This document shows, one piece after another, positions 11,138 through 60,926 of a DNA stretch of 64,000 bases (position 1 is the first letter of the stretch; each line of letters starts with the position of its first letter). Under the pieces are notes generated by a model. The model was given only the letters and a program-made list of their open reading frames with translations. It made no database searches and was not told where the DNA came from. The DNA lies in the NCBI GenBank assembly GCA_964458315.1, contig CAYWIK010000005.1:4122-68121 (forward strand), in the 5' to 3' direction. Position numbers and translations under genes: made by a program. This DNA comes from an uncultured Spirochaetales bacterium (lineage in GTDB: Bacteria > Spirochaetota > Spirochaetia > SPDA01 > CAZSGZ01).

Positions 11138-11159
11138 AAGTCCGGCGGAATATGTAACT

Positions 11160-44397: not shown

Positions 44398-44409
44398 GGA
44401 TCTACCTTA

Positions 44410-46293
44410 TTAATATCCATCCTTCCCGTGGAGCTCCATCAAATTGCGCAGCAGGACCGAGTAGTCGGCCGCAAACCCGTAATCCGCCGCCTTGAAAATC
44501 GGCGCGTCCGGGTCCTTGTTGACCGCGATGACCGTTTCGGCATCGTGCATTCCTACCAGATGCTGCACCGCGCCCGAAATCCCGCAGGCGAAATAGACCG
44601 CCGGCTGGACCGTTTTCCCGGTCTGGCCGACCTGTTGGGGATAAGGAATCCAGCCGGCTTCAACGGCGCTTCTCGAAGCGCCGACTGCGCCGCCTACCAT
44701 GGCGGCGAACCGTTCGAGCAGCTCGAAGCCGGCTCTACCCCCCAGGCCCCGGCCGCCGGAGATGATGATTCGGGCATTTGCAATGTCCGATTTTCCGCGG
44801 ATTGTCCGTTTTCGTTCGAGGACCCTGACCGGCGGGGCCGTTCCCCCGCGGCCGGCCGAAGCGCAGGGAGTGACCGAAGCGCGCGGTTTGGCGTTTCCGG
44901 CGGCCCCGTCTTCGATCGGCTTCAGCACATGAGGGCGGGCGGTCGCCATTTGGGGCCGCCGGTCCGGACAGGTAATGGTTGCCATGATATTTCCCCCAAA
45001 GGCCGGCCGCGTCTGGAGGAGAAGACCGGTTTTATCGTCGATATCGAAACGGGTACAATCGGCAGTAAGTCCGGTCTCGAGCCGGGAGGCTACGAGGGGC
45101 ATATAAGCCCTGCCTCCTAATGTTGCGGGCCCGAGGACAAACGCCGGATCGATTTCTCTTAGAGCTTCCGCTAACACCTCTGCGAGAACGTTTACTTCAC
45201 CGGCGAACTCCGGTTCTATTTCGGCATAGCAGACCGTGCTTACACCCGGAAATGCGGCGGATTGGAGGACCTCCCGTAAGTGCGGTCCGGCAAAGAGAAG
45301 GGTAACCGCGGTCCCTGCTTTCTCAGATAGCCTTCGGGTTTCTCCCAGCAGTTCGAAGGTTACGGAGCGGATGCTCTTTTCTTCAGGGTCGATCTCTCCG
45401 ATAACCGCTGCTTTGCGGTGTTGAGATTCGTCGGATACAGCTGCATCGGGACCCGGTGCGGCCGGGGAAGCAGCGGCTGCAGGTGAATCGTTGGCCCTAG
45501 CCCGCGGACGGTCCGTTTCTTTTTTTCTCAGCAATTCGAGGACCATGCGCAGGTCTTCTTCCCGGTCCGGATCAAGAAACCGGACCTTTTTGTCGTGGGA
45601 CACTGGAACGATTTTTTTTACCCTCGTGGGGGAACCGGACAGTCCGACGCCGCCCTTTTGGAAACCAAGTTCTTGGTTGGTAAAAAAAGAAAGTTCCTCG
45701 GCAAACGCCTTCTCCCATCCCGGAAGGGTTATGAGCCGGGGCGTATTAATGTCTTTGACCACCGCGCATACCGCGGGAAGAGAAGCTTCAAGAATAAAAT
45801 GACCGGTATCGGTCATCGATTCAACCTGCAGTGTGCTCCTTTCCGTTTTGTTGATTTTAAAAACATAGGGAAGAAAGGGTATTCCGAGACGGACCGCCAG
45901 CTCCGCGGGAACTTGGGCCGTATCTCCGTCGATCGCTTGCTTTCCGCACAAAATTATATCCGGATCGCCGATTTTTCGCACAGCCTCGGCAAGTGTCACT
46001 GCCGTGGCCCATGTATCCGCGCCTGCAAACATCTTGTCCGAACAGAGAAAACCGCGGTCCGCACCCATTGCCAGTGCTTCGCGCAGAGAATGTTCGACTT
46101 GTTTCGGGCCCATGGAGAGGACCGATACCTCCCCGCCATACCGTTCCCGAAGGCGAATTCCTTCTTCTACAGCGTTACAGTCGAGAGGATTGATTATGCT
46201 TTCCACCCCTTCCCGATTCAGGGTCCCTGTTTCCGGGTCCACCGTGAGTTCCGCCGTATCCGGCACTTGTTTTATACAAACGATAATCTTCAT
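44410..46293 (-). CDS. Fused electron transfer flavoprotein beta-alpha (EtfB-EtfA)
   Basis: N-half KQVPD, GKQAIDGDTAQV, PRLITL; Ala/Pro linker; C-half GLTADCT, RPAFGGN, RPQMAT, SGGRG, QVGQTG, GISGAVQH, INKD-like VNKDPDAPIF. Confidence 0.93.
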   Translation of the reverse strand: MKIIVCIKQVPDTAELTVDPETGTLNREGVESIINPLDCNAVEEGIRLRERYGGEVSVLSMGPKQVEHSLREALAMGADRGFLCSDKMFAGADTWATAVTLAEAVRKIGDPDIILCGKQAIDGDTAQVPAELAVRLGIPFLPYVFKINKTERSTLQVESMTDTGHFILEASLPAVCAVVKDINTPRLITLPGWEKAFAEELSFFTNQELGFQKGGVGLSGSPTRVKKIVPVSHDKKVRFLDPDREEDLRMVLELLRKKETDRPRARANDSPAAAASPAAPGPDAAVSDESQHRKAAVIGEIDPEEKSIRSVTFELLGETRRLSEKAGTAVTLLFAGPHLREVLQSAAFPGVSTVCYAEIEPEFAGEVNVLAEVLAEALREIDPAFVLGPATLGGRAYMPLVASRLETGLTADCTRFDIDDKTGLLLQTRPAFGGNIMATITCPDRRPQMATARPHVLKPIEDGAAGNAKPRASVTPCASAGRGGTAPPVRVLERKRTIRGKSDIANARIIISGGRGLGGRAGFELLERFAAMVGGAVGASRSAVEAGWIPYPQQVGQTGKTVQPAVYFACGISGAVQHLVGMHDAETVIAVNKDPDAPIFKAADYGFAADYSVLLRNLMELHGKDGY

Positions 46294-48128
46294 GCAAAAA
46301 CCAACGGCCCGAGGAGATAGTAATCGAAAGACGCGGGGAGCTTTGCATATACGAAAGGTCGTTTAATGCTTTTCTTGAGCACATCCTTTACATGAGGAAC
46401 GAGGCCGGGTTCATCCAGCCCCTCAGTATAGAGTTTCACTGCCTCTTGCCTCCTTTCGAGAAGGTCTAAAGCCCTCCCTTCCCAGAGAAAAAGGAGGGAA
46501 TGCAGCACCGGCGGGAACGCATCATTTTTTTTCAAGTTTTTAAAAATTTTCAGGGCAGTTTCGAATTCCCGGTTTTTTAAATATAAAATCCCAAGGATGT
46601 AGCGGTATGGAGGATCATCGTACAGGCCGACCGCTCTGCGCATGGAAGCCAAAGAGGAAGAGAGCTTGCCGATCTTCAAATATTCCTGTGAAAACATCGC
46701 ATGCCGGAGGGAGGCTTTCATATCCTCCGTAACTGCGGTATACGGTGTATTGTGGAAAACCGGCCGGTTCGACCTTACGTATGACGGAAGCCGTTCGACT
46801 GAGACAGCGCTGCTGCTGTCTTTAGGAAAATTAAAACCGATATAACGATTGTAGCAGACTGCCGGAGGTTTCCCGCCGGCCACCCAAAAATGCATGGTCT
46901 CCGGTTCGAATACTACACTGGTAAGGGTAATCGGCTGGGCGGGAAAAACGCCGAGAAGTCGTAATTCTTCCGCGGCGGCGGAATAATTGCATGAAATTAT
47001 ATCGATCATCCGCTGTACCGTTAGAGAGCCGTAATTTTCCTCGAGAGCATCTTTGATTATACGATATCTTCCAATTGTGTTCTCCTGCAGGAGAGGGAAT
47101 TCGATTTCATCTTTTTTGAGTCTCGGATTATGGTAATGATTGGTCTGTACCATTATATCAAACTCATCTTCCATCCTGCGGATGACACAACGTTTTGAAT
47201 CATTTTCCACGGAAACCGCCCCGGCTTTATCCGCGAAAAGGACGGCATGGGGAGTTCCACAGGTCAGTTTCTCATTCCTGATTAAATGTTCAATACCTTC
47301 GATCGATTCCGTGCGCGTAAGAAGGTAGTGGTTGAAATCGAGGGAGAGCATGCCCTTTTTTGCTACATTTTTCGAGAGGTATACAAACATACTCATGACC
47401 GTTCCAAAGGAACTCATCCCGGTCAAGCCGTTCCCGGGAAATCCTGCCGCGGAAATATATACATAAGGCGCTTTTTTCCGCTTTTCCCAATGAAAAGAGC
47501 CGTTTTCTCCTCGAACATACATTTCTATTTCTTCGGTGGGATAAGAGTAGATAACCGTTGGATATTTCCAGGCAAATACCCCGGGGAAATCCATATTTCG
47601 GGCAAACATGGCCTTAGCTCCCGCTTTCAGCGCGCTCTTTCGCGCATAGGCCCCGCTGCACCCGCCGAGATAATAGTTTCCAAGGGTTTCCTTACCGCCT
47701 TGCAGAAACCCGGCGGCAAGGATTTCCATAAGATCGGGAGAAACTACACCGCGTACCGCTTGTCCTCGATCCAGTTCAAGGGCATCCGAAATTCCGTACA
47801 GCTCATCCTTTGTTTCTTCGAGCATCATTTTTTCGAGAGGCGTGTAGTACAGATGGTCGAGGATATCTGCAAGAAGATGTTTCAGTCCGCCGGGAATCTT
47901 TTTTGCAAAGTCGGAGCTGTAATAGAGAGATTTCAGAAAGGAACCGTAATACCGGTTTATTCCGGAGTCTATGATTTTTCCTTTTAAAAGCTCCGCGTGG
48001 GCAAGTCCGCGTTCGTACGGATTTCCATAGAGATAGAGTACATTGATTCCTCCCTTTTCCCAAAGTTCGGAACCGCTCGGCCCGTGTTTTTTAATAAATT
48101 TATAGCCCGCAAGTTTTTCCAAAGCCAA
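46290..48128 (-). CDS. Peptidase C45-like Ntn hydrolase/acyltransferase with C-terminal TPR
   Basis: GxPYERGxAH, predicted nucleophile GGC-SG, ARNMDF, QTNHY; TPR-like C-terminal helices; GGAG SD before TTG. Confidence 0.75.
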   Translation of the reverse strand: MALEKLAGYKFIKKHGPSGSELWEKGGINVLYLYGNPYERGLAHAELLKGKIIDSGINRYYGSFLKSLYYSSDFAKKIPGGLKHLLADILDHLYYTPLEKMMLEETKDELYGISDALELDRGQAVRGVVSPDLMEILAAGFLQGGKETLGNYYLGGCSGAYARKSALKAGAKAMFARNMDFPGVFAWKYPTVIYSYPTEEIEMYVRGENGSFHWEKRKKAPYVYISAAGFPGNGLTGMSSFGTVMSMFVYLSKNVAKKGMLSLDFNHYLLTRTESIEGIEHLIRNEKLTCGTPHAVLFADKAGAVSVENDSKRCVIRRMEDEFDIMVQTNHYHNPRLKKDEIEFPLLQENTIGRYRIIKDALEENYGSLTVQRMIDIISCNYSAAAEELRLLGVFPAQPITLTSVVFEPETMHFWVAGGKPPAVCYNRYIGFNFPKDSSSAVSVERLPSYVRSNRPVFHNTPYTAVTEDMKASLRHAMFSQEYLKIGKLSSSLASMRRAVGLYDDPPYRYILGILYLKNREFETALKIFKNLKKNDAFPPVLHSLLFLWEGRALDLLERRQEAVKLYTEGLDEPGLVPHVKDVLKKSIKRPFVYAKLPASFDYYLLGPLVFA

Positions 48129-48217: not shown

Positions 48218-49585
48218 CTATACTTTTATTTGCTTCCATTTCCCTTGGCGGAATTTCAGGGTGAGGACGATAGAACGGATAAGGAAATCGGAGCACATTC
48301 CAATCCAAACACCAAAAAGCCCCAGCCCGGCACGGATGCTCAAGGACCAGCAAAGGGGCAGACGGATGAAAAACCTGCTTAAAAACATAATGATCATCGG
48401 AAACCGCGTTTCTCCCGCCCCTCGGAGTCCCCCGCTCACTACTAAGGTTGGGGCGAGAAAAATCGCCATGGCCGCATAGAGCCTTAAGGGGCGTCGTGCA
48501 ATCGAGATGATATCTTTAGACTCGGTAAACAGCCGGATAAGGGTTTCCGGGATGGTAAAATAGAGGACCGCAACCGCGGCGAAGATGCCCGCGGCATAGA
48601 GAACCGATTTCCACACCAATCGTTCCGCGCGCTCCGGTTTTTCAGCGCCCAGGTTTTGTCCGGTAAGGGTCGAAGCGGCAATCGAAAAGCCGAAGCCGGG
48701 CATAAAGGAAAGGGAGGCGAGGCGGATGACGATCTGGAACCCAGCAATTGAATAACTGCCGAGAGGATTTACCGAAATGGCCATTACGACAATTTGGCTT
48801 ATGGACATGGTCATTCGTTCGGCGGTAGCCGGCAAACCGAAACGGAGGACTTTTCCCAGATGGGAAAAGGAAAAAAACGGTCCTTTTCCGAATGGCCCCC
48901 ACGGTTTTTTCAAGGATAAAACCAGAAGAGCGCCCGCACCGCACACAAAGCTTATTCCGGAGGCGAGCGCGGCCCCCCGTATTCCCATTTCCGGGAACCC
49001 GAACCTTCCGAATATCAGAATCCAGTCGAGGACCAGATTGACTACATTCATTCCTACCCCCACGATCATCGGTGTAAGGGTGTTTCCGGCCGCCCTGAAT
49101 CCGAATTGCAGGGCCACAAGGAGGTATACAAAGGGAATGAAAAGTACGAATAATGAAAAATAGTCCCTGGACGCCGGAAACAATTCCTTCGGCATCTGCA
49201 TTACCCTGAACAGCCCGTTGTGGGTAAACCGGAGCATCGGAACCAACAGGAGACCGAGGACCGAAAATCCAATAATTGCCGCACGAAAGTAAAGAGACGC
49301 ATTGCGCAGGTCCCCCGCGCCGACCATTCTCGCTACGCAAGTGGTAAGCCCGATACCGAACCCTTCCGCCATCATCCGGATGTTCCAGACGATAAGCATT
49401 ATGAGCCCGGAGGCCGCAAGGGGGATGGGCCCAAGCTGCCCGATAAAGATCGTATCTACTACTTCAACAGCCGTGAGGGAAATCTGAGAAAGGATTGCGG
49501 GAACTGCAAGCTCCAGGATTTCGCGGGAATCACTTTTATGTAAAGGCATTGAACCTACCATACGGGTTTCTTCGGTTTTACTCAA
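48218..49585 (-). CDS. MATE family transporter
   Basis: ELAVPAIL, VDTIFIGQLG, GNTLTPM, NLVLDWILIFG, MGIRGAALAS, GQNLGA. Confidence 0.95.
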   Translation of the reverse strand: MSKTEETRMVGSMPLHKSDSREILELAVPAILSQISLTAVEVVDTIFIGQLGPIPLAASGLIMLIVWNIRMMAEGFGIGLTTCVARMVGAGDLRNASLYFRAAIIGFSVLGLLLVPMLRFTHNGLFRVMQMPKELFPASRDYFSLFVLFIPFVYLLVALQFGFRAAGNTLTPMIVGVGMNVVNLVLDWILIFGRFGFPEMGIRGAALASGISFVCGAGALLVLSLKKPWGPFGKGPFFSFSHLGKVLRFGLPATAERMTMSISQIVVMAISVNPLGSYSIAGFQIVIRLASLSFMPGFGFSIAASTLTGQNLGAEKPERAERLVWKSVLYAAGIFAAVAVLYFTIPETLIRLFTESKDIISIARRPLRLYAAMAIFLAPTLVVSGGLRGAGETRFPMIIMFLSRFFIRLPLCWSLSIRAGLGLFGVWIGMCSDFLIRSIVLTLKFRQGKWKQIKV

Positions 49586-49604: not shown

Positions 49605-49633
49605 GTGACAGAAGTCAAATTTTATTTTACTAT
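49605..49633 (+). promoter_or_regulatory. sigma70 promoter of the cysD operon (GTGACA-N17-TACTAT), 11 nt before the ATG
   Basis: Read directly; no SD. Confidence 0.6.
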
Positions 49634-49644
49634 CGAAATCCGTT

Positions 49645-50526
49645 ATGGATCACCTGGAATATTTAGAGAATATTAGTGTTAGAATTCTGAGGGAAGCATA
49701 CGCGAATTTCAAAAATCTGGGTATGCTTTGGTCTATCGGTAAAGACAGTACCGTTCTTTTATGGCTTGCCAGAAAGGCATTTTTCGGTCATGTCCCGATT
49801 CCTCTTATCCACATCGATACAAGTTTTAAAATTCCCGAAATGATAGAATACAGAGATCGTCTCACGAAAGAGTGGGGGTTGACCATGATTTACGGACAGA
49901 ACCGCGCCGCCATAGAAGAAAAAAACACCTTTCCCGACGGGAATACGGACCGCCTCTCCTGCTGCCGCCTGTTGAAAACCGAAGCCCTGCGCAATACCCT
50001 TGCAGGCACCTGGGACCGCTACCGGTTCAACCATAAAACCGGGCGATACGAGGTGGACAAAAACCGGGAACCCTTTACCGGGATTATTGCCGGCGTTCGG
50101 GCGGACGAGGAGGGGTCCAGGTCCAAGGAGCGTTATTTTTCTCCCAGAGACAAGGAAAACGAGTGGGACGTAGACGACCAGCCGCCTGAGTTTTGGAACC
50201 AGTTCAAGACCGATTTCGCGCCCGGCACCCACCTCCGGATCCATCCACTTCTCGATTGGACGGAACTCAACATCTGGGAATATATCGAACGGGAAAAAAT
50301 CCCTACGGTAAGCTTGTACTACAATCAAGGAAACGGAAAACGGTATCGTTCCCTGGGCTGTGCGCCATGTACTTTTCCGATCGATTCGTCTTCCGGAAAC
50401 GTTGCTGAGATTGTCGAAGAGCTTTCTACCGGAAACCTTTCCAATATAGCGGAGCGTTCGGGCCGGGCACAGGACAAAGAGGACGGCGGCGGTCTGGAAA
50501 CTTTACGCAGAGACGGGTATATGTAA
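49645..50526 (+). CDS. cysD: Sulfate adenylyltransferase subunit 2
   Basis: [46 protein letters not shown]. Confidence 0.95.
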
Positions 50527-52328
50527 TGGTTTCGAAAGACCGCAAACAGATGAATATTGTCATTGCCGGTCATGTGGACCATGGAAAGAGCACCGTCATC
50601 GGCCGGCTTTTAGCGGACACCGGCAGCCTGCCGGAGGGAAAGCTGGAGCAGATCAAACATCAGTGTGAAATCAACTCTAAACCCTTCGAGTATGCTTTTC
50701 TGTTAGACGCCCTCAAGCACGAACAGGCACAGGGAATTACCATCGACAGCGCCCGGGTGTTTTTCCATACGAAGGCGCGGGATTATATCATTATCGACGC
50801 GCCGGGCCATATCGAATTCCTTAAAAATATGGTAAGCGGGGCGGCCCGGGCGGAAGCGGCCTTTTTGGTAATCGACGCGGAAGAGGGAATTCAGGAGAAT
50901 TCACGGCGCCACGGCTATATGCTTACCATGCTCGGGATCAAGCAGATCTGTGTGCTGGTCAACAAGATGGATTTGGTCGAATACAACAAGGTCACCTTTA
51001 AAAAGATAACGAGAAAATTTTCCCGTTTTCTTCGAAATGTGGAGATCTTCGACGTGACCTTTATTCCGGTAAGCGGCGTCGAAGGGACTAATATCAATAC
51101 GTTAAGCGATATTACCGACTGGTATGAAGGGCCGACGGTAGTCGAGCAGCTCGATATTTTTGAAAAAGAGCCCGACCGAAACGAACGGGCGTTCCGAATG
51201 CCGGTCCAGGACGTGTATAAATTCACTCGTTACGGCGACAGCCGGAGAATCATCGCCGGAACGGTAGATTCAGGCACTCTCCGGGTGGGCGACGATGTGG
51301 TATTTTATCCGTCGGGCAAGCGGAGTAAAGTGAAGAGCATCGAATCTTTTAATACGGAGCAAAAACTTCAGGTTTCCGCGGGGCACGCTGCGGGTTTCAC
51401 ATTGGAGGAACAGATTTACGTCACTCGGGGGCAGATTGCGGTACGCGCGGACGAGCTCAAGCCGAAGGTGGCTTCGGTGGTCCGGGTAAACCTATTCTGG
51501 CTCGGCCGCCGGCCGGTGACTATGAAAAAAGAATATATATTCAAGATTGGAACGGTTCGCGTTCAGGCACGGGTAGAGGAAATTGTGCGGGTCATCGATG
51601 CATCTACCCTCGATGCCAAAGCCGTTAAAGAAGTGATAGAGCTTCATGATGTGGCCGAATGCATTCTCCGTCTCGGCAAACCGATTGCTTTCGACTTGGT
51701 CGACAACATTCCTCAAACCAGCCGGTTCGTCATTGTAGACGACTATGAAATCCGCGGCGGCGGAATTATACGGGAACCCATAGAAGATATCCAGTCCTTT
51801 GCCAGACGGAATATTTTAGTCCGAAATTACAACTGGGAACCGAGTCATATACCGCCGAAAAAACGCGCCTCCAGGTACAGTCAGCGGCCCACCCTTATCC
51901 TCATTACCGGACAGGAGAGTGACGCGAAGAGAGGAATCGCCGAACAGCTCGAAGAACAGCTTTTCGCGGAGGGGAAATTGGTGTATGCCATCGGTATCGG
52001 GAACATTCTTTCCGGGATCAGCGCCGATGTTACCGAAGAGAAAGGCGGCCGGACCGAACAAATCAGACGGCTCGCCGAGGTGGCCCATCTTTTTTTAGAC
52101 GCGGGAATGATTCTTATCGTGACGGCGGTGGAACTTACCCAGGACGACCTGGACCTGATCCGGTTTTCAATTACTCCGGACAGGATCGAGACCGTCTGGG
52201 TAGGCGATCAAGTAACGACGGACCTCACCTTTGACCTGCAGGTGACCAACAACGTGGTTTTAGAAGAGGCGATTACCGGCGTCAAGGAGCTTTTGATTAA
52301 AAACCGCATCATCTTTCAACCTTTGTAA
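50526..52328 (+). CDS. cysN: Sulfate adenylyltransferase GTPase subunit with degenerate C-terminal APS-kinase-like domain
   Basis: GHVDHGKS, GITID, DAPGH, NKMD; C-terminal CysC-like fold lacking the P-loop. Confidence 0.93.
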   Translation: MVSKDRKQMNIVIAGHVDHGKSTVIGRLLADTGSLPEGKLEQIKHQCEINSKPFEYAFLLDALKHEQAQGITIDSARVFFHTKARDYIIIDAPGHIEFLKNMVSGAARAEAAFLVIDAEEGIQENSRRHGYMLTMLGIKQICVLVNKMDLVEYNKVTFKKITRKFSRFLRNVEIFDVTFIPVSGVEGTNINTLSDITDWYEGPTVVEQLDIFEKEPDRNERAFRMPVQDVYKFTRYGDSRRIIAGTVDSGTLRVGDDVVFYPSGKRSKVKSIESFNTEQKLQVSAGHAAGFTLEEQIYVTRGQIAVRADELKPKVASVVRVNLFWLGRRPVTMKKEYIFKIGTVRVQARVEEIVRVIDASTLDAKAVKEVIELHDVAECILRLGKPIAFDLVDNIPQTSRFVIVDDYEIRGGGIIREPIEDIQSFARRNILVRNYNWEPSHIPPKKRASRYSQRPTLILITGQESDAKRGIAEQLEEQLFAEGKLVYAIGIGNILSGISADVTEEKGGRTEQIRRLAEVAHLFLDAGMILIVTAVELTQDDLDLIRFSITPDRIETVWVGDQVTTDLTFDLQVTNNVVLEEAITGVKELLIKNRIIFQPL

Positions 52329-52341
52329 GGAGTTAATCAAT

Positions 52342-53622
52342 ATGAATACGGAATATACACTCCGATGTACATCCTGCGGAAAAAGCATAAGCGACGAAGA
52401 ATTACCCCTCCAATGCGATTGCGGGACTCCGGCTCTGCTGCGGGCGGAATACGAAAAAAAACAACTGAATCCCGGCCCCGACGCTTTAGGCCTGTATAAG
52501 TTTGCCGATTGGCTTCCCATCCGGCGGACCCTCGAAGGTTCAGCCCCGCCGATTACCTATAAGAGCGACGGACTGGCAAAACGGCTCGGGTTTTCGAACC
52601 TGTATATAACCTTCAACGGTTACTGGCCCGAGCGGGACTGCGGGATGAAAACGGGGACGTTTAAAGAGTGCGAGGCCTTTTCCGTATGCGCGAGGATGCC
52701 GGAGGGGTTTGAAAAGACCCTGGTGGTTGCATCAGCGGGGAATACGGCGCGCGCCTTTGCACGGGTCTGTTCCGCCAACCGTATTCCCTTGGTGGTCGTG
52801 GTACCGGAGACGAGCCTGGATGCAATGTGGTTCGACGAAGATATCGACTCTTGCGTGCGGCTGATTGCCGCCGGGGGAGGCAGCGATTATTTCGATGCAA
52901 TTTATCTGTCCAATTTGATTTGCGGTATCGACGGATATGTGCCCGAGGGGGGCGCTAAGAATATCGCCCGCCGCGACGGTATGGGGACCACGGTCTTGAG
53001 CGCCGCCGTTGAAATTGGCGAGGTGCCTGAGTATTATTTTCAGGCCGTAGGAAGCGGTACCGGCGCGATTGCCGCATGGGAAGCCAACCGTAGGCTCCTT
53101 GCGGACGGACGGTTCGGCGAAAATAAAATGAAGCTTATGGTCTCTCAGAACGCGCCGTTTCTGCTTCTTTTCGACAGCTGGAAACGGAAGATGAGGGAGT
53201 TGGTTGAACTCGATCTTGCAACCGCTTCAAAACAAATCGAGGAAATCAAAGCGAAGGTCCTCTCCAACCGGAAACCGCCCTATAGTCTGACCGGCGGATT
53301 GTACGATGCCCTTGTGGACGTCGAAGGAGATGTGCTTGCGGCCACCAACTTGGAATCGGACGAAGCGCGGCAGCTTTTCTTAGAAACCGAAGGGATTGAT
53401 ATTACCCCGGCCGCGGGTGTAGCATTGGCAAGCCTTATTCAGGCTTCGAAAACGGGCTTAGTAAAAAAAGAGGCGCTGGTAATGCTCAATATTACCGGCG
53501 GCGGAGTGGAGCGATTTAAATTGGAGAGACCGACCCGCTATCTCGAACCCTCTACCGTCATTCCCCGGGAGGATATCGTGCGGGAAAATCTCAATGCGAT
53601 AACAAAAGCATTAGGCGAGTAA
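52342..53622 (+). CDS. Cysteate synthase (threonine-synthase-like, PLP)
   Basis: N-terminal CxxC, DWLP, FNGYWPER, TGTFKECEA (PLP Lys), ASAGNTARAF, EGGAKNIARRDGMGT, YFQAVGSGTG, LSNRKPPY, LNITGGG. Confidence 0.9.
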   Translation: MNTEYTLRCTSCGKSISDEELPLQCDCGTPALLRAEYEKKQLNPGPDALGLYKFADWLPIRRTLEGSAPPITYKSDGLAKRLGFSNLYITFNGYWPERDCGMKTGTFKECEAFSVCARMPEGFEKTLVVASAGNTARAFARVCSANRIPLVVVVPETSLDAMWFDEDIDSCVRLIAAGGGSDYFDAIYLSNLICGIDGYVPEGGAKNIARRDGMGTTVLSAAVEIGEVPEYYFQAVGSGTGAIAAWEANRRLLADGRFGENKMKLMVSQNAPFLLLFDSWKRKMRELVELDLATASKQIEEIKAKVLSNRKPPYSLTGGLYDALVDVEGDVLAATNLESDEARQLFLETEGIDITPAAGVALASLIQASKTGLVKKEALVMLNITGGGVERFKLERPTRYLEPSTVIPREDIVRENLNAITKALGE

Positions 53623-53634
53623 AGGAGTTGTAAA

Positions 53635-54912
53635 ATGGACCTGTTTGATAAATGTAAAACGGATGAAGGATATTTCGGAAAATTGCGCGCCATGGGAGAT
53701 AATTACTTTACCATGCCGGTTATAGACGATAAGCCGGGCAGAATCATGGAATACGACGGCGAAAAAAAATTGATGTGGTCCGTCAATAATTATCTCGGTT
53801 TGGCGGATAACGAGGAGATAAAAAAAAGCGCCTTAGAAACCGTGGAGGAGTGGAGCGTTTCCGCGCCCATGGGATCGAGGATGATGAGCGGAAACACGAG
53901 CGAACATATCGCTTTGGAAAATCAGCTGGCAGAGTTCGCCAAAAAAGAAGCTTCCATTCTGTTTAATTACGGATATCTCGGGGTTTTAGGGACTATTTCC
54001 TCCCTCGCGGGACAGGATGACATGATCATTATGGATAAGCTTGCGCACGCATCGATCGTGGACGGTGTCCTTTTGTCCCGCGCCCCTTTTCGGGTTTTTA
54101 AGCACAACGACATGGAAAGTCTCGAAATTGTGCTCAAACGGGTGAATAAGGAACGGAAAGGCGGCGTGCTCATTGTAATCGAAGGGACTTACGGAATGAC
54201 CGGCGATCTCGCAAAACTTAAAGAAATCTGCGAATTGAAAGAAAAATACGACGCACGGCTTTTTGTCGACGATGCCCACGGGTTCGGGGTTCTCGGGGAG
54301 CAAGGCCGGGGCGCTCCCGATCATTTCGGCGTGCAGGACAAGGTCGATATATATTTCGGCACTTTCGCCAAGTCCTTCGCCTCTATCGGCGGGTTCTCCG
54401 CCGCGCGGAAGGACGTGGTGCAGTGGATACGCTATAATGCCAGGACCCAGGTGTTTGCCAAGAGCCTGCCCATGGTGTACGTAAAATCCCTGCGGAAAGC
54501 GCTTGAACTGGTAAAAAACGGAGATAAAAGGCGCGAGCACATGTGGAAAATCTCGAATGTCCTGAAAAAAGGACTTTCGGAGCTTGGTTACTATATCGGA
54601 AAGGGAGAGAGCCCCATCTGCGCGGTGTTTGCTCCTATCGGAAGCGAGAATGTTGAAACCGTGGGCGCCAGGCTGGTTAAATATTTGCGGCACGAGAAGA
54701 ATATATTCACCACCGCGGTCATCTACCCGGTTATTCCCCTCGGACTTTTAATGTTCCGGATCATCCCGACCACGGCCCACACCGAGGAAGACGTGGATAC
54801 TACGGTTAAAGCGTTTAAGGACATGCGGGACGAGATGAAGCTCGACTTGAAGATGGACGAAAAGGACCGGAAGAATATCGATAAAATCTACGGTATTAGG
54901 AGCGCCGATTAA
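53635..54912 (+). CDS. Alpha-oxoamine synthase family enzyme, cysteate-C-fatty-acyltransferase (SulA/CapB)-like
   Basis: NNYLGLA, PMGSRMMSG, LFNYGYLG, DKLAHASIVDG, VDDAHGFG, YFGTFAKS (PLP Lys), RTQVFAKSLPM. Confidence 0.8.
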   Translation: MDLFDKCKTDEGYFGKLRAMGDNYFTMPVIDDKPGRIMEYDGEKKLMWSVNNYLGLADNEEIKKSALETVEEWSVSAPMGSRMMSGNTSEHIALENQLAEFAKKEASILFNYGYLGVLGTISSLAGQDDMIIMDKLAHASIVDGVLLSRAPFRVFKHNDMESLEIVLKRVNKERKGGVLIVIEGTYGMTGDLAKLKEICELKEKYDARLFVDDAHGFGVLGEQGRGAPDHFGVQDKVDIYFGTFAKSFASIGGFSAARKDVVQWIRYNARTQVFAKSLPMVYVKSLRKALELVKNGDKRREHMWKISNVLKKGLSELGYYIGKGESPICAVFAPIGSENVETVGARLVKYLRHEKNIFTTAVIYPVIPLGLLMFRIIPTTAHTEEDVDTTVKAFKDMRDEMKLDLKMDEKDRKNIDKIYGIRSAD

Positions 54913-55970
54913 TCCTTTACCCGGCCGAAACGGAGCGCCTTCAGGAGCATGTTCGGAAGGGGTTTCTCCGGGTCCCGCTTCGTAAGATCCAGGTATCTTC
55001 CTTTTGCCTTGTTGATGGGAATTTTGTGGGTTTCGACAAATTCGATGAGCGTTCCGTCAGGGTCTTCGATATAGCTGAAGGGCCCGCTCGCCTCGCCCAT
55101 ATCAAAGGCGCCGCTGCTTTCCACGGTAAAGGGGAACCCTTGTTCTTCGCATACTTTACGGAGGGCCTCCATGCCGCGGATATCGAAACAGAGATGGATA
55201 AAGCCCAAATCGCCCCAGTACCGGTCTTTAAAAATTTTACGCGGCTTTCGTCCGAGACACTGGACGAGCTCGATTTTTGACGGCCCTAAAATGCGGCTGA
55301 ATGCTCCTTTTCGTGCTTCCGAATGGGTAAGGAGAACGCGCCGCACGTTTTCATCTCCTCCCGGAAGGGGTGCAAAATCGTCCGCGGCGCCGGAGACGTC
55401 ATAGACGACGCGGTCGTATCCCAGGATATCCGCGTACACTTTCCCGGCATTTTCGATGTCCGAGACGCCGATCATGCAGCCCGAAACCCCGCCGGTGACA
55501 TGGCGCCCCCTGGAAAAAAAATCCCTTTCCTCCACTACTTGATATAGGTTCCCATAAGGGTCCTGTACGAAAAAGTGTCCGGCCCCGCCAGGGTCTTTTT
55601 GTATCCCGCCGATTAATTCCGCGTCTTCTTGTTGAAAAAACGTATATGCTTTTTCCGCGTTTCTGCATTTTATTCGGGCGCTGAAAATTCCCAAGTCGCC
55701 GAGGAGTATTTCGAAGTCCGGTTTTTCCGGTTTCCGGCTTTCATACTGCCATATTTCAAAACCTCCTCCTCCCATAATCGATATGGCCAGCGTGGCGGTG
55801 CGGGAATGTACCTTGCCGCCGGTATATTTTGTCATAAACGGGGCTTCACCCGAATCGGTGAACACCGGTATATCCATGCCGAAGTGTTTCCGGATCCATC
55901 CCCGTGCGGCGTCCGCATTAGGGATGCCCAATCCTACCTGCTGTATTCCGCTTATCAAATAGTCTGCCAT
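54909..55970 (-). CDS. Two-domain VOC (glyoxalase-fold) protein
   Basis: ISGIQQVGLG, GGGFEIWQ, QDPYGN, GCMIGVSD, WGDLGFIHLCFD, EDPDGTLIEFVE; start at MADYL. Confidence 0.85.
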   Translation of the reverse strand: MADYLISGIQQVGLGIPNADAARGWIRKHFGMDIPVFTDSGEAPFMTKYTGGKVHSRTATLAISIMGGGGFEIWQYESRKPEKPDFEILLGDLGIFSARIKCRNAEKAYTFFQQEDAELIGGIQKDPGGAGHFFVQDPYGNLYQVVEERDFFSRGRHVTGGVSGCMIGVSDIENAGKVYADILGYDRVVYDVSGAADDFAPLPGGDENVRRVLLTHSEARKGAFSRILGPSKIELVQCLGRKPRKIFKDRYWGDLGFIHLCFDIRGMEALRKVCEEQGFPFTVESSGAFDMGEASGPFSYIEDPDGTLIEFVETHKIPINKAKGRYLDLTKRDPEKPLPNMLLKALRFGRVKD

Positions 55971-56006: not shown

Positions 56007-56027
56007 CAAAGCATAGAATAAGACGCC

Positions 56028-57197
56028 ATGGAGTATAATTTAGACAAGGTAATCGAACGAAAGGGAACCAACACCTATAAGTGGGACAACATGCAGAAAC
56101 TTTTCGGGAGAAACGATCTTCTTCCCATGTGGGTAGCGGACATGGATTTTCCCGCTCCGGAGGGAATACGGTTTGCAATCGAAGAACGGGCGCGCCACGG
56201 GATCTACGGATACACCTACACCCCCGAATCGGTTTACGAGTCGGTCATAAACTGGATGTATTCTCGGCACGGCTGGGTGATAGAGCGGGAATGGCTTTCG
56301 TTTTTGCCCGGCGTGATGCCGAGTGTTGCCTTTGTTATTCAGGCCTTTACCTCGCCCGGGGACGGCGTAATCGTACAGCCGCCGGTGTACTATCCCTTTT
56401 TTTCCGTTGTGAAGGCAAACGGGCGAAAGCTGCTGGAAAATCCCCTCCTGATCGATACCGAGGGAAAATATCATATCGATTTTTCCGATTTAGAAAAAAA
56501 ACTGAAACAAGGCGGAAAAATCCTTCTCCTCTGCAGTCCTCACAATCCGGTCGGCCGCGTTTGGACCAAAGAGGAGCTGACGGAAATCGGCCGTCTTTGT
56601 AAAAAACATGAAGCGATCGTGCTCTCCGATGAGATTCACGCCGACCTGGTGTTTCCGGGGGCGACCCATTGGCCCTTCTCAAAAATTTCCGATGAGCTGA
56701 GGGACCTTTCAATCGTCGCGCAGGCGCCGAGTAAGAGCTTTAATATTCCGGGTTTGACGATTTCGGAGCTCATCATTCCGTCGAAAAGTTTGCGCGAACG
56801 TTTCTTTCGGTTCTATCGCGGGCTTTCCATGCATCTTTCCAATCTTTTCAGCACCACCGCCCTCGAGGCCGCCTACCGGGAGGGGGGCGATTGGTTGGAC
56901 CAGGTTCTTGCGTATATCGATAGAAATATCGGGCTGGTAGAAAAACGGTTAAGAGAAACCACTCCGGGGCTTACCTTTCAAAAACCCGAAGGGACCTATC
57001 TGCTCTGGCTCGACTGCAGGCGGCTCGGCCGGGACGCTGAAGAAAGCGCCCGCCTCTTGGTGGAGAAAGGAAAAATCGCCCTTAATCGCGGAGACACGTT
57101 CGGCACCGGCGGTGAAGGCTTTCACCGCATGAACGTCGCCTGTCCCCGCTCAATTGTCGAAGAGGGATGCCTGAGGATCGCGAAGGCTTTCGGTTAA
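56028..57197 (+). CDS. MalY/PatB family PLP C-S lyase (cystathionine beta-lyase-like)
   Basis: PMWVADMDF, CSPHNPVGRVW, SDEIHADL, APSKSFNIPG, EGTYLLWLD, RMNVACP. Confidence 0.95.
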   Translation: MEYNLDKVIERKGTNTYKWDNMQKLFGRNDLLPMWVADMDFPAPEGIRFAIEERARHGIYGYTYTPESVYESVINWMYSRHGWVIEREWLSFLPGVMPSVAFVIQAFTSPGDGVIVQPPVYYPFFSVVKANGRKLLENPLLIDTEGKYHIDFSDLEKKLKQGGKILLLCSPHNPVGRVWTKEELTEIGRLCKKHEAIVLSDEIHADLVFPGATHWPFSKISDELRDLSIVAQAPSKSFNIPGLTISELIIPSKSLRERFFRFYRGLSMHLSNLFSTTALEAAYREGGDWLDQVLAYIDRNIGLVEKRLRETTPGLTFQKPEGTYLLWLDCRRLGRDAEESARLLVEKGKIALNRGDTFGTGGEGFHRMNVACPRSIVEEGCLRIAKAFG

Positions 57198-57281: not shown

Positions 57282-59651
57282 ATGGAAGAAAAACACGTTC
57301 CCCTTGCACTAAACGATGTATCTTTCGTGCTTACGGAGAAAGAAATCGCCCGCCTCGAGAAACACGCGCCAAACGAATCCGTGATCGGTCAGGAACGCGG
57401 TATGAAAGCACTTCGGATGGGGACCGAAATACAGAGCCGCGGGTACAATGTCTTTGTTACCGGTATGCCGGGTACGGGCCGACGAACAGCCGTTAAAAGA
57501 ATTCTCGAGGAGTACGACGGAGCACTGCGGGAGCACAAAGACGTCGCTTATGTGTATAATTTTGACCAGCCGATGCAGCCGAGGGTGCTTTATTTCGGCC
57601 CCGGTAACGCCGTGAAATTTAAACATGATGTTCACCAACTTGTAGAAAATTTAAAGAGTACGATAAAACTGCGGTTGGAAAGTGAAGCATATATCGAGCA
57701 GCGAAACGAAATTGTACAGGTAATAGAGCAGGAGGAGAACAGGCGTATATCCTCTTTCGAAGTGAAGCTCTCGAAAGAGGGGTTTAGGATGATCCACATA
57801 CGGGAAGGCGAAGGGCAGGCCATGGATATCGCCCCGCTCTATGAAGGGAAACCGGTGAACTTCGAACGGCTCCATGAAATGGTAGCGTCCGGAGAGCTTT
57901 CGGAAAATGAATTGAATACGAAGCGTGAAAAATATTTTGGATATATGGATGAAATGAAAAAGGTGTTTGCCGAACTTCGTAATGCCAGGTCCGCCATGGA
58001 TGAGGAACTTGAGGCGCTGCAAATTGAAACGGCTCGGCCGGCAGTCGCGGTGGAGGTGAGCCATCTGCGTGAGCTCTACGGGGGAGAAAAGATCGAAGCT
58101 TATTTAGCTGCATTAGAGCAAGATCTTCTTACCAATCTATATCTTTTTACCACGGATGAACACATTCGGGACTCGGCAGGGAACCCGGGATTTCTGCGCT
58201 ACGGGGTGCATGTTTTGGAGGATCGGTCCGATATCGACGCCTTTCCGGTGGTGTATGAACACTATCCGAGCTACGAAAACCTCTTCGGGAATATTGATGT
58301 CCAGACCACCTTCATGATGATTCAGGCCGGTTCGGTTGTGCGGGCCTCCGGCGGTTTTCTCGTTATCCAGGCAGAGGACCTTCTTCGGGAAGAGGAGTCT
58401 TGGTTCCATCTCAAACGAACGCTGCAGACCGGATTGGTCGAAATTCAGCATCGCCCCGGTCTCTTTGGACAATGCGGTGCGATGATGAAACCGGAACCAA
58501 TTGAGGTAGACACAAAAGTCATTATTGTAGGGAACGAAAATCTATACGATCTATTGTATGCAAGTGATCCGGATTTTCGGAAATTTTTCAAAATACACGC
58601 TGAATTCAACCGAATCACCAATCGAAACGACGAAACCATGGCTGCATATATCGAGTTCATTCATACCTTTTGTTCCGATGAGGGACTCAAGCCGGTTTCA
58701 AAATCGGGACTCTGCGCGCTTGTCGAATACGGAGTGCGGCTTGCAGAGGATAGAGAAAAAATAAGCACACGCTTTTCCCTTATTTCCGACCTGCTCCGGG
58801 AAGCGGATTACATAGCGGAAAAGAAAGGACGTAAAGATATCGGCCGTGATTCGGTAGCAGCAGCCCTTTCGGAGCGTCAATTCCTTGCGGACCGGTTCGA
58901 ATCGAGTATAGATGAGCAGATTGTGCGGGGGAAACTTTTTGTGGAGGTTACCGGCAGCGCGGTCGGCCGGGTGAACGGCCTCGCGGTGTATGACCGGGGG
59001 TACCGCTCTTTCGGAAGACCTGCGGTCATTACGGCCCGCGCCGCTCCGGGCGGAAAAGGAGTTGTTAATATTGAGCGGGAGGCCGGATTGTCGGGAGAGA
59101 TTCACAATAAAGGGATCCTCATTCTCGAAAGTTTCATCCGAAGCAGCTACGCTCCTGATTTTCCGGTGTCGATCCACGCGAGCATCTGTTTTGAACAGTC
59201 TTACGGAGAAATCGATGGAGATTCCGCATCCTCTACGGAAGTGTATGCCCTCCTGAGCGCCCTCGCGGAAGTCCCTCTCCGGCAGGATATTGCCGTTACC
59301 GGGAGTGTCAACCAAATGGGATACGTGCAGCCGGTCGGCGGAATAACCGAAAAGGTGGAAGGCTTTTTTCATGTCTGTAGGATGAGCGGGCTTACCGGGA
59401 CTCAGGGGGTGGTTATTCCCAAACAAAATATAACGAACCTCGTCCTCACCGGCGAAACTTACCAAGCGGTGGAGAAAGGAGATTTTTTTATCTATCCCGC
59501 TGCAACGATAAACGACGGCATAGAGATTCTCACCGGGATGGAAGCGGGGGAGCAGCAGCGGGGGAGGTTCCCTGAGGGGACATTCAACGACCTGGTAAGG
59601 AGAAAACTCCGCGAAATGGGAGACCATGTGCGAAACTACATTCGGGCGTAA
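57282..59651 (+). CDS. Lon-like protease (LonC/AAA_32 type, peptidase S16)
   Basis: VIGQER, degenerate Walker A GMPGTGRRT, Ser-Lys dyad DGDSAS...GGITEK; TGnTACCAT 7 nt before the ATG. Confidence 0.92.
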   Translation: MEEKHVPLALNDVSFVLTEKEIARLEKHAPNESVIGQERGMKALRMGTEIQSRGYNVFVTGMPGTGRRTAVKRILEEYDGALREHKDVAYVYNFDQPMQPRVLYFGPGNAVKFKHDVHQLVENLKSTIKLRLESEAYIEQRNEIVQVIEQEENRRISSFEVKLSKEGFRMIHIREGEGQAMDIAPLYEGKPVNFERLHEMVASGELSENELNTKREKYFGYMDEMKKVFAELRNARSAMDEELEALQIETARPAVAVEVSHLRELYGGEKIEAYLAALEQDLLTNLYLFTTDEHIRDSAGNPGFLRYGVHVLEDRSDIDAFPVVYEHYPSYENLFGNIDVQTTFMMIQAGSVVRASGGFLVIQAEDLLREEESWFHLKRTLQTGLVEIQHRPGLFGQCGAMMKPEPIEVDTKVIIVGNENLYDLLYASDPDFRKFFKIHAEFNRITNRNDETMAAYIEFIHTFCSDEGLKPVSKSGLCALVEYGVRLAEDREKISTRFSLISDLLREADYIAEKKGRKDIGRDSVAAALSERQFLADRFESSIDEQIVRGKLFVEVTGSAVGRVNGLAVYDRGYRSFGRPAVITARAAPGGKGVVNIEREAGLSGEIHNKGILILESFIRSSYAPDFPVSIHASICFEQSYGEIDGDSASSTEVYALLSALAEVPLRQDIAVTGSVNQMGYVQPVGGITEKVEGFFHVCRMSGLTGTQGVVIPKQNITNLVLTGETYQAVEKGDFFIYPAATINDGIEILTGMEAGEQQRGRFPEGTFNDLVRRKLREMGDHVRNYIRA

Positions 59652-59663
59652 AAAGGAAACATC

Positions 59664-60926
59664 ATGGAAAAAATAAACCTCGATCCGGAGTGGGCGGAAG
59701 AACGGCTCCTTAAACGGTTTGACCGATATGTGCGCGTCGAGACCACGTCGGACAGAAATGCAGACAAGGTGCCTTCTACAGAAGCGCAGTGGGAACTCCT
59801 TAGGCTTCTTGAAGGAGAACTGAGGGAGCTTGGGGTCGGCGATGTAGAACTCGATGAAAACGGGTATCTGATTGCTCGGCTTCCGGCGAATGCCGGCACC
59901 TCCGCCGCCACGCCGGCCATCGGCTTTATGGCCCACGTAGACACCGCGGCTGAAGCCCCCGGCAGTAATGTCCGTCCGCAGATCCGTGAAAACTACGACG
60001 GAAGTATCATCGTGCTCAAGGACGGCATCACCATCGACCCGGCGGAGTTTCCCGAACTGCGGGACAGAATCGGCGACACGATCATCACCTCCGACGGCAC
60101 GACCCTCCTGGGAGCGGACGACAAGGCCGGCGTGGCGGAAATCATGACTGCCGTGGAATGGCTCTCTCAAAATCCGGATACAGGCCGCGGAGAAATAGAA
60201 ATCATCTTTACTCCGGACGAAGAGACTGGAAAAGGGATGGACTGCTTTCCAATAAACAAACTGCATTCGAAATACTGCTACACCTTTGACGGCGATGTGG
60301 AGGGCGCCATAGAGGCGGAGTGTTTTCACGGATACATGGCGGTAGTGCATATAAGGGGCGTGTCGATCCATCCCGGGAAAGGCCGGGGAAAGTTGATGAA
60401 CGCCGTGACCATGGCGTCCGCATTTGTTTCCATGCTGCCGAGAAATGAAAGCCCCGAAGCGACGGACGGCCGGTATGGATTTTACTGTCCTTTAGAGATA
60501 AACGGGAGTATCGGCAGGGCGGAAATCCGCCTGCTCCTGAGGGATTTTGCATATCCGGAGATTGAGCGGCGGTCCGCCGCTTTGCGGAAAATCGCCGCCG
60601 CGGTTGAAGCGGATTTCCCCGGCTCCAGTGTAGAGGTGGAAATAAAAAAACAGTATGAAAACATGCGCGATCATTTAGACCGGGAGCCGAGGGGACTCGA
60701 ATTCTTGCGCGGGGCAGTGCGGCTGGCCGGGATGGATCCGGTGGAGAAGGAAATCCGGGGCGGGACCGACGGCGCCAGACTTGCCGAGATGGGAATACCG
60801 ACGCCGAATGTTTTTACCGGCGGTGCAAACTACCACAGCGTTCGGGAGTGGGCTTCTTTGCAGGTGATGCGTAAAGCGACTGAGACCCTACTGAATATAA
60901 TCAGGCTGTGGGCGGAAAAGGGTTAA
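59664..60926 (+). CDS. pepT: Tripeptidase T
   Basis: GFMAHVDT, SDGTTLLGADDKAG, FTPDEE, RGGTDG, NYHS..EW. Confidence 0.96.
   Translation: MEKINLDPEWAEERLLKRFDRYVRVETTSDRNADKVPSTEAQWELLRLLEGELRELGVGDVELDENGYLIARLPANAGTSAATPAIGFMAHVDTAAEAPGSNVRPQIRENYDGSIIVLKDGITIDPAEFPELRDRIGDTIITSDGTTLLGADDKAGVAEIMTAVEWLSQNPDTGRGEIEIIFTPDEETGKGMDCFPINKLHSKYCYTFDGDVEGAIEAECFHGYMAVVHIRGVSIHPGKGRGKLMNAVTMASAFVSMLPRNESPEATDGRYGFYCPLEINGSIGRAEIRLLLRDFAYPEIERRSAALRKIAAAVEADFPGSSVEVEIKKQYENMRDHLDREPRGLEFLRGAVRLAGMDPVEKEIRGGTDGARLAEMGIPTPNVFTGGANYHSVREWASLQVMRKATETLLNIIRLWAEKG

Follow-up and report, generated by a model that had tools for sequence, protein, structure and literature searches.

The window analysed here is a 64,000-nucleotide (64-kb) stretch of contig CAYWIK010000005.1, from an uncultured Spirochaetales bacterium. 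It contains an operon of four forward-strand genes with a predicted role in sulfonolipid synthesis: cysD (49645-50526, 293 aa), cysN (50526-52328, 600 aa), a gene for cysteate synthase (CS; 52342-53622, 426 aa), a pyridoxal phosphate (PLP) enzyme, and a gene for a SulA/CapB/CFAT-type alpha-oxoamine synthase (AOS; 53635-54912, 425 aa). A fifth gene, encoding a 353-aa VOC family protein (54909-55970, reverse strand), converges on the AOS gene and overlaps it by 4 bp, including the AOS stop codon. The ORF (open reading frame) of this VOC gene extends to a TTG at 56009, but its homologues start at ATG 55970, which we therefore take as its start. An earlier, sequence-only reading of this DNA had described four co-oriented genes behind one promoter, with a 1-bp overlap, gaps of 12-13 bp and AAGGAG Shine-Dalgarno sequences. 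All four ORFs were recovered at exactly these positions and the junctions are as described, but the conserved convergent VOC gene had been overlooked.

At the first junction, the cysD stop codon and the cysN start codon share one base (TAATG). Gaps of 13 nt and 12 nt separate cysN from the CS gene and the CS gene from the AOS gene, respectively, and in both an AAGGAG Shine-Dalgarno sequence is overlapped by the TAA stop codon (TAAGGAGttaatcaatATG and TAAAGGAGttgtaaaATG). The gene order is identical in six independent contig lineages, with AOS identities of 73-100%; by this comparison the arrangement is more than chance, and the operon is maintained.

The single promoter also has a counterpart in the DNA. 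A consensus scan found a sigma-70-like element (GTGACA-17 nt-TACTAT, 49605-49633, forward strand) that ends 11 nt before the cysD ATG. The block around it (GGGGTGACAGAA...TACTATCG) is unchanged in the window and in relatives at 91% (L082) and 79% (L086) AOS identity, while its flanks diverge and the upstream gene itself is different in L086; we infer that this conserved block functions as a promoter. Both relatives carry a leader of about 35 nt with a GGAG ribosome-binding site between the -10 box and the cysD ATG. This leader is missing from the window, where just 11 nt (49634-49644) lie between the conserved -10-like box and the cysD ATG. Translation of cysD in the window may start on an mRNA with almost no leader, or its expression may be weak. 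Rfam and tRNA scans covering the entire window were negative, so the operon has no riboswitch or leader RNA ahead of it.

The predicted condensing enzyme and cysteate synthase

The AOS protein scores 362.6 bits against PDB entry 28eh ('Cysteate-C-fatty acyltransferase') and 360.5 bits against 7u7h (SulA of Alistipes finegoldii). The best scores against other AOS structures are 242.9 bits for SPT, 215.6 bits for KBL and about 155 bits for BioF, so that even the closest of these falls about 120 bits short of SulA/CFAT. Identity is 44.8% to SulA, 34.6% to SPT and 33.1% to KBL, and the full-length protein aligns end to end with the lipid-forming SulA/CFAT enzymes, including their N-terminal domain. 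Residues N51, H138, D212, H215, K246 (the PLP lysine) and R375 correspond to N53, H140, D217, H220, K251 and R376 of SulA. Lys276, within the motif FAKSLPM, corresponds to SulA Lys281, where SPT has Ala and KBL has Asn; this diagnostic lysine is found in 80/80 cysteate-type sequences. Lys281 (Ala in SPT) was proposed in the SulA paper to discriminate between sulfonolipid and sphingolipid condensing enzymes (PMC9304779).

In a neighbour-joining (NJ) tree, the AOS falls into a clade that we designate spirochaete-type (100/100 bootstraps). Its sister is the Bacteroidota clade containing SulA and CFAT (100/100), and SPT and KBL lie outside both (100/100). Members of the spirochaete-type clade, found in metagenome-assembled genomes (MAGs) of Spirochaetota, 'Eubacteriales' and Marinimicrobia, are 58-100% identical to one another and about 45% identical to the Bacteroidota SulA clade, from which they are thus separate. 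With SulA, CapB of Capnocytophaga ochracea, CFAT and Fjoh_2419, the window AOS shares fold, length, catalytic residues, the diagnostic lysine and 44-45% identity. Among NCBIfam models, it stays under the cutoff of every named subfamily, with the KBL, SPT and BioF models at about 300-317 bits. Its identification as a predicted cysteate acyltransferase, which would condense cysteate and a fatty acyl-ACP (acyl carrier protein) or acyl-CoA to 3-ketocapnine and CO2, is supported by these comparisons.

The third gene product passes the cysteate-synthase equivalog TIGR03844 (EC 2.5.1.76) with 494.6 bits against a cutoff of 324.9, and reaches at most 66.6 bits with threonine-synthase models. Against PDB entry 9k3c ('Cysteate synthase') it scores 509.5 bits, with 57.2% identity over 409 residues, and its TFKE aligns to SFKE of 9k3c at the PLP-lysine motif. 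Its assignment as a cysteate synthase, predicted to convert O-phosphoserine and sulfite to L-cysteate, is likewise supported. The sequence-only reading had named the third and fourth genes as cysteate synthase and cysteate acyltransferase, and had proposed to compare both with family models and in a phylogeny; in that comparison both names held, with the AOS grouping with SulA/CFAT and not with SPT or KBL. The equivalog pass, the identity and the PLP-lysine motif are shared with known cysteate synthases (Methanosarcina type, CapA, 9k3c). Unlike in their known settings, the window enzyme comes from a spirochaete and shares its operon with genes for an AOS and CysDN. According to reviews, Alistipes and Odoribacter have no cysteate synthase at all (PMC10191378).

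Sulfate activation and a degenerate kinase domain

CysD is the small subunit of sulfate adenylyltransferase (NCBIfam NF003587, 336.6 bits against a cutoff of 195; Pfam PAPS_reduct match). Residues 1-430 of CysN correspond to the GTPase subunit of that enzyme (GTP_EFTU, 155.7 bits), with a borderline score for TIGR02034 (335.9 bits, cutoff 336.1) and intact GTPase motifs (G1 GHVDHGKS, G3 DAPG, G4 NKMD). Residues ~431-600 (nt 51816-52328) form a domain that aligns to the adenosine 5'-phosphosulfate (APS) kinases 3uie and 1d6j. Compared with these, its kinase motifs are lost: the P-loop GLSGSGKST reads GQESDAKRG, DGDN reads GIGN and SP reads VE. CysN also falls below the cutoff of the bifunctional CysNC model NF004035 (440.8 bits, cutoff 715). 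We therefore rejected its designation as a bifunctional CysNC, given the absence of the Walker-A P-loop, DGDN and SP. Of the cysD-cysN pair called by the sequence-only reading, the CysD subunit and the GTPase part of CysN stand, while the C-terminal APS-kinase domain turns out to be degenerate.

The degenerate P-loop, ITGQESD[A/G]K, is kept in relatives, and the ratio of nonsynonymous to synonymous substitution rates (dN/dS) of the kinase-like domain against the 91% relative, 0.016, is the lowest of the operon. From its sequence, the domain is predicted to be catalytically dead and conserved in a non-catalytic form, and its retention suggests a regulatory, structural or scaffolding role. With a dead kinase domain, the operon should deliver APS and not 3'-phosphoadenosine 5'-phosphosulfate (PAPS). 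In layout, CysD and a GTPase CysN with a C-terminal APS-kinase-fold domain are shared with CysDN/CysNC systems, as in CysNC/NodQ. Fungal ATP sulfurylase carries a non-catalytic, regulatory APS-kinase-like domain, and since the CysN domain has lost its kinase motifs yet is strongly constrained, it resembles this fungal domain more than an active CysC.

Conservation of the operon and the supply of sulfite

Against the 91% relative, dN/dS is 0.018 for cysD, 0.034 for cysN, 0.082 for the CS gene, 0.036 for the AOS gene and 0.087 for the VOC gene, at synonymous divergences (dS) of 0.9-2.2 across the five genes. By these estimates all five are under strong purifying selection, and a decaying operon was rejected on the dN/dS values. 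GC content, GC content at third codon positions (GC3) and codon usage of the operon match the rest of the window (r = 0.94). A recent horizontal transfer from Bacteroidota was rejected as well: the composition is native, and the AOS clade branches deeply as a sister to the Bacteroidota clade instead of lying inside it.

In three relatives, L086, L173 and L174 (one at 73% and two, L086 among them, at 79%), a fifth operon gene follows the AOS gene. Its 240-aa product, a reductase, scores above the cutoff of the thioredoxin-dependent APS-reductase model TIGR02055 (262.4 bits, cutoff 235.3) and contains CC/CxxC/ECGLH, which we take to be the signature of Fe-S APS reductases. Such an in-operon APS reductase fits the kinase-dead CysN, that is, an APS-only route. 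The gene (cysH) is missing at this position in the window and in the 91% and 80% relatives. Its relocation is likelier than a loss of function because purifying selection is strong, and it fits better than decay because the cysH-less layout is common to three members of the sub-lineage (80%, 91% and 100%).

No homologue was found in the window by tblastn with CysH, SDR, CysQ, sulfate transporter and PlsC-type acyltransferase sequences from other loci, and Pfam searches of about 45 window ORFs returned no adh_short, acyltransferase or ACP for the pathway. Two candidates in relatives were set aside. An SDR near the L086 operon lies in a sugar ABC transporter/GntR context and is no closer to the VOC-linked SDRs (see below) than a generic SDR, and the 291-aa gene that precedes cysD in L172 is a lipoprotein-like ORF restricted to that lineage, without a counterpart at other loci.

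The sequence-only reading had also proposed a survey of gene neighbourhoods. In this survey, both the adjacency of the CS and AOS genes and the link between sulfate activation and AOS recur. The CS gene lies directly upstream of the AOS gene in the spirochaete loci L001, L004-L006, L088 and L171, often with a TetR gene and without cysDN; the cysDN module is specific to the lineage of the window. Seven loci from Bacteroidales/Chlorobiota MAGs (L013, L014, L016, L017, L021, L022 and L033) contain a divergent nine-gene cluster (e.g. L022:789-11221), in which a SulA-type AOS gene faces genes for a VOC protein, an APS reductase, CysD, CysN, a transporter, an SDR, a CysQ-type phosphatase and a PALP enzyme. 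There, CysN lacks the kinase domain and the transporter is of the CitMHS/Na-sulfate-symporter type. The PALP enzyme scores 127 bits with TIGR03844, under its cutoff of 324.9, and might represent another, non-orthologous enzyme that forms cysteate. A SulA-type enzyme has thus become associated with sulfate activation at least twice, which supports the pathway that the sequence-only reading had inferred.

Two genes flank the locus. Divergent from cysD lies a gene for a MATE-family efflux transporter (48218-49585, reverse strand), which is kept in the 91% and 80% relatives and not in those at 73-79%; whether it belongs with the operon is uncertain. A gene for a PatB-family C-S lyase (56028-57197, forward strand; TIGR04350, 490.8 bits) lies divergent from the VOC gene, and at its position the 91% relative, the 80% relative and one 79% relative have a class I/II aminotransferase-fold gene. 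The PatB-family gene may be related to sulfur amino acids or be merely syntenic.

The VOC partner and candidates for late steps

No neighbour of SulA-type AOS genes is conserved as widely as the VOC gene. It is present in every close relative and adjoins a SulA-type AOS gene in 21 of 80 genome loci (Spirochaetota, Bacteroidota and Chlorobiota), in convergent or divergent orientation. VOC proteins from different phyla are 57-68% identical, an unusually high conservation next to the AOS, at about 45%. They form a large family whose members are named just 'VOC family protein'.

The window protein matches Pfam Glyoxalase and Glyoxalase_4 and has a two-domain, four-module VOC/glyoxalase fold. Its AlphaFold2 (AF2) model has a pLDDT of 91.8, and the best fold matches are the two-domain glyoxalase I of Zea mays (GLX1, 6bnx), human GLOD4 (3zi1) and PcpA (4huz), at 11-15% identity and TM scores of up to 0.68-0.69 on the target. 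Q10, Q11, E72, H259, E310 and E313 are invariant. In the model, Q10/Q11, E72, H259 and E310/E313 sit on the first and last strands of modules 1 and 4, which we take to be the usual place of VOC metal ligands, and the set presumably resembles the Gln/Glu/His/Glu site of Zn-type glyoxalase I. The protein shares the beta-alpha-beta-beta-beta four-module fold of the glyoxalase I/VOC superfamily and is a predicted metalloprotein, but unlike glyoxalase I it is found in a context of lipid and sulfur metabolism. The score for the glyoxalase I model TIGR00068 is 18.5 bits, against a cutoff of 120, and a sequence search of the PDB gave no match. With failing family models, no PDB sequence match and generic fold matches, we rejected both glyoxalase I and extradiol dioxygenase as its identity. 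We propose, with low confidence, that it catalyses a metal-dependent proton transfer (epimerisation/isomerisation) next to the keto group of an alpha-amino-ketone sulfonate.

The neighbours of VOC homologues were surveyed in 80 metagenome loci (L092-L171) retrieved with the VOC alignment. An SDR gene adjoins the VOC gene in 32 of the 80 (25 of the 52 loci of at least 8 kb), a gene for a PlsC-type acyltransferase in 15 and a SulA-type AOS gene in 5. L165:7779-11065 is an acyltransferase-SDR-VOC operon, and in L121:9126-12265 an SDR-VOC pair faces an acyltransferase gene. The VOC-linked PlsC-family acyltransferases are about 414-462 aa long, and the SDRs of L165 and L121 share 44% identity. In a Bacteroidia MAG, the VOC gene similarly lies beside a gene for a PlsC-family acyltransferase of about 457 aa.

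Several loci join the VOC gene to further functions. In L088, a Spirochaetaceae genome (4.84 Mb, a MAG by its NCBI label), VOC, CysH-like, CS, SulA-type AOS and TetR genes lie together, and the genome also holds a separate KBL-like paralogue. In L091 (6575-12318), the VOC gene is directly preceded by a gene for a 1101-aa fusion of an acyl-AMP ligase (AMP-binding), a PP-binding carrier and a SulA-type AOS, the last being 54% identical to the window AOS and containing the diagnostic lysine; a molybdopterin sulfite-oxidase-like gene converges on the VOC gene. The fusion of acyl-AMP ligase, carrier and AOS points to fatty-acyl donors. For the predicted substrates of the window AOS, indirect support comes from its operonic coupling to the CS gene and from this fusion. 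In L089 (10001-16490), from the isolate Fodinibius halophilus (GCA_011059105.1, Balneolaceae), the VOC gene converges on a gene for a 458-aa PlsC-type acyltransferase, beyond which lie genes for a sulfotransferase, a fatty-acid hydroxylase and a CysQ-like phosphatase. This isolate is a possible experimental handle on the VOC family. In the Spirochaeta/Alkalispirochaeta-type loci L001, L006, L007 and L010, the VOC gene is followed by co-oriented genes for a Pfam-less protein of about 210 aa and an Hpre_diP_synt_I-family membrane protein (e.g. L006:12512-13722), neither of which is present in the window.

Steps three and four of sulfonolipid synthesis call for an SDR and an acyltransferase, which makes the VOC-linked SDR and PlsC-type acyltransferase candidate late sulfonolipid enzymes. 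Published 3-ketocapnine reductases are promiscuous, scattered SDRs (PMC11211663), and the N-acylating enzyme goes unnamed in the reviews consulted. It is possible, if doubtful, that VOC is an unrecognised component of the synthesis of sulfonolipids, or of related lipids with a sulfonated long-chain base, with a new metal-dependent step such as C2 epimerisation or isomerisation of the alpha-amino-ketone sulfonate, that the PlsC-type acyltransferase and the SDR act as N-acyltransferase and 3-ketocapnine reductase, and that together they form a modular pathway of six to nine genes in Spirochaetota, Bacteroidota, Chlorobiota and Balneolaceae.

Host and distribution

The sequence-only reading had placed the DNA in a spirochaete, and a marker gene in the window agrees. 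For the CTP synthase encoded 25 kb away from the operon, the named top matches are nearly all from Spirochaetota (Spirochaetales, Spirochaetaceae and Alkalispirochaetaceae), with two exceptions, a MAG of an unclassified 'bacterium' and a Clostridia MAG. By this protein, Marispirochaeta aestuarii (71% identity) and Spirochaeta cellobiosiphila (69%) are the closest cultured species. Other chromosomal genes in the window include those for LptC/LptA/LptB, RpoN, HprK and FapA. Together with the CTP synthase matches, these point to an uncultured, free-living, diderm Spirochaetales-like host. An identical AOS protein is encoded on a microbial-mat metagenome contig (ERZ922773, PRJEB25599).

More than 100 AOS homologues have identities of 62-91%; the named ones come from Spirochaetota MAGs and one from Marinimicrobia, and they are annotated just as 'glycine C-acetyltransferase' or 'aminotransferase class I/II'. 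With one genome per GTDB species, there are 11 AOS loci at 58-71% (Spirochaetaceae, Spirochaeta, Alkalispirochaeta and 'Eubacteriales' MAGs), followed by a tier at 43-47% in Bacteroidota, Chlorobiota and Balneolaceae. Among the homologues found, the spirochaete-type clade has no cultured carrier.

A proposed pathway and its alternatives

From the gene identities, catalytic residues, conservation and selection at the locus, we infer substrates, an order of steps and a lipid output as follows. CysD and the GTPase CysN would activate sulfate to APS, with no PAPS being made. A thioredoxin-dependent Fe-S APS reductase, which in this genome would be encoded outside the window, would then reduce APS to sulfite. 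Cysteate synthase would swap the phosphate of O-phospho-L-serine for sulfite, resulting in L-cysteate, and the SulA/CapB-type PLP enzyme would condense cysteate with a long-chain acyl thioester, releasing CO2 and forming 3-ketocapnine. Finally, reduction to capnine and N-acylation would be carried out by an SDR and an acyltransferase that are likewise encoded outside the window. We consider it likely that the operon constitutes the front end of such a sulfonolipid (capnine-type) pathway, making cysteate and a ketocapnine-type base. The entry route to sulfonolipids proposed in the sequence-only reading thus agrees with the sequence tests, except that the window contains no sulfite-forming APS reductase.

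Several observations weigh against this assignment. The AOS is just 44-45% identical to characterised enzymes and belongs to a sister clade without a characterised member, and its tree is an NJ tree with one SPT and one KBL as outgroup. The SulA paper calls Lys281 structural and leaves the basis of cysteate selectivity open (PMC9304779). Every spirochaete-type locus found comes from a MAG or a metagenome. The expression level of the window cysD is uncertain, as it lacks the Shine-Dalgarno-bearing leader of its relatives, and the VOC gene would belong to the same functional unit through guilt by association. Lastly, the 64-kb window encodes no sulfite source, 3-ketocapnine reductase, N-acyltransferase or ACP. 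However, in known producers the late genes are not linked either (PMC11211663), and their lack in the window does not show that the genome lacks them.

In a first alternative, the AOS joins cysteate to a short or unusual acyl donor, and its product is no membrane sulfonolipid but a small sulfonated amino-ketone (an osmolyte, a signal or a precursor of natural products). The lack of fatty-acid, ACP, reductase and N-acyltransferase genes in the window speaks for it, as do the divergently adjacent MATE exporter, conserved in the sub-lineage, and a microbial-mat habitat, where sulfonate osmolytes are common (cysteinolate is named as an osmolyte; PMC12814064). We regard it as unlikely given that the AOS aligns end to end with lipid-forming SulA/CFAT, that L091 combines a SulA-type domain in one protein with an acyl-AMP ligase and a carrier protein, and that VOC genes elsewhere lie beside genes for PlsC-type acyltransferases, a fatty-acid hydroxylase and SDRs.

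It is quite unlikely that the system is a non-functional or poorly expressed remnant that lost its in-operon APS reductase and the Shine-Dalgarno leader of cysD. Such a remnant would account for a cysH that is present in the 73-79% relatives and missing from the 80-100% sub-lineage, for the deletion of about 35 nt between the -10 box and the cysD ATG, and for the lack of a sulfite source within 64 kb. Nevertheless, all five ORFs are intact, dN/dS values of 0.018-0.087 at a dS of 0.9-2.2 indicate long purifying selection after cysH left the operon, and the cysH-less layout of the 80%, 91% and 100% members is better explained by relocation.

The AOS could also be an SPT or a KBL/BioF-type enzyme that is coincidentally adjacent to a CS gene whose cysteate serves a coenzyme M-like cofactor, taurine or sulfolactate metabolism. 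Public annotation as glycine C-acetyltransferase and the NCBIfam results, with all cutoffs missed and KBL, SPT and BioF models near 300-317 bits, are in line with this. It is made very unlikely by the 120-bit gap between structures, the lysine in place of Ala (SPT) or Asn (KBL), the 100/100 clade, the CS and AOS genes being 12 nt apart and adjacent in many loci, and the separate KBL-like paralogue in the complete spirochaete genome L088. That the operon serves ordinary assimilatory sulfate reduction for cysteine, with its two PLP enzymes being mis-called housekeeping genes (threonine-synthase-like and aminotransferase-like), is barely conceivable: cysDN are classic assimilation genes and the PLP enzymes have only generic Pfam labels, but neither operon nor window encodes a sulfite reductase, CysK/CysM or serine acetyltransferase, and the cysteate-synthase equivalog is passed by a large margin while threonine-synthase models stay at or below 67 bits.

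Relation to known systems

The sequence-only reading had put the locus forward as an undescribed system. We instead regard it as a variant of a described pathway, the CapA/CapB entry into capnine synthesis. It differs from described systems in its phylum, a separate AOS clade, a tight operon with a predicted APS-only module, a kinase-dead CysN domain and a conserved VOC partner. The literature searched describes sulfonolipids in Bacteroidota and, as the sequence-only reading had supposed, includes no paper linking them to spirochaetes, the homologue lists of the Nat Commun 2024 survey and of Vences-Guzman 2021 lying outside the scope of that search. Large homology surveys report 'CFAT homologues' in 13-21 phyla at loose cutoffs, so homologues outside Bacteroidota are not unheard of; the spirochaete-type AOS clade appears to have been singled out or analysed by no one. 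In characterised Bacteroidota producers, the pathway genes are scattered (PMC11211663), whereas in the window the AOS is translationally coupled to CS and sulfate activation.

Bacterial sphingolipid clusters share the logic of a PLP-dependent AOS whose product, an amino-keto long-chain base, is then reduced and N-acylated. The sphingolipid genes of Caulobacter are Spt-CerS-CerR. In the sphingolipid cluster of Rhodobacteria, SPT is accompanied by a dedicated ACP and an acyl-CoA synthetase (PMC9386255). The fusion in L091 echoes this acyl supply. Unlike in the sphingolipid clusters, the predicted substrate in the window is cysteate and not serine, and the operon has its own sulfur-activation module and a VOC partner, neither of which is known there.

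Sulfonolipids are bioactive outer-membrane lipids that gliding motility requires, that count the rosette-inducing factors of choanoflagellates among them and that act on gut TLR4. If our assignment is correct, this lipid class would reach a further diderm phylum as well as microbial mats and soda lakes. The operon would also be the first compact gene cluster for a pathway whose scattered genes elsewhere hampered the discovery of the remaining enzymes, with concrete candidates for the missing parts (VOC, the PlsC-type acyltransferase and a specific SDR). The combination of a kinase-dead CysN and an APS reductase would be a clean example of an APS-only sulfur branch for a lipid head group.

Other features of the window

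Two further reverse-strand regions lie at lower coordinates than the MATE gene. At 42718-46293, a fused EtfB-EtfA (627 aa) is encoded beside an FAD-linked oxidase (559 aa); this pair is kept beside the operon in several relatives and resembles the lactate/glycolate dehydrogenase-electron-transfer flavoprotein modules that are typical of anaerobes. At 46290-48128, a 612-aa autoproteolytic acyltransferase/hydrolase of the C45 family (acyl-CoA:6-APA acyltransferase-like) is encoded, whose orthologue in the 91% relative has faint TPR matches in its C-terminal part. A 557-aa ORF at 58698-60371 (reverse strand), antisense to genes for a LonC-like protease and an M20 peptidase, is almost certainly spurious. 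Finally, an unusual cluster at 8582-12047 (forward strand) encodes three ParA/MinD-type P-loop ATPases, two of them with 4Fe-4S ferredoxin inserts, followed by an ARMT1-like damage-control phosphatase.

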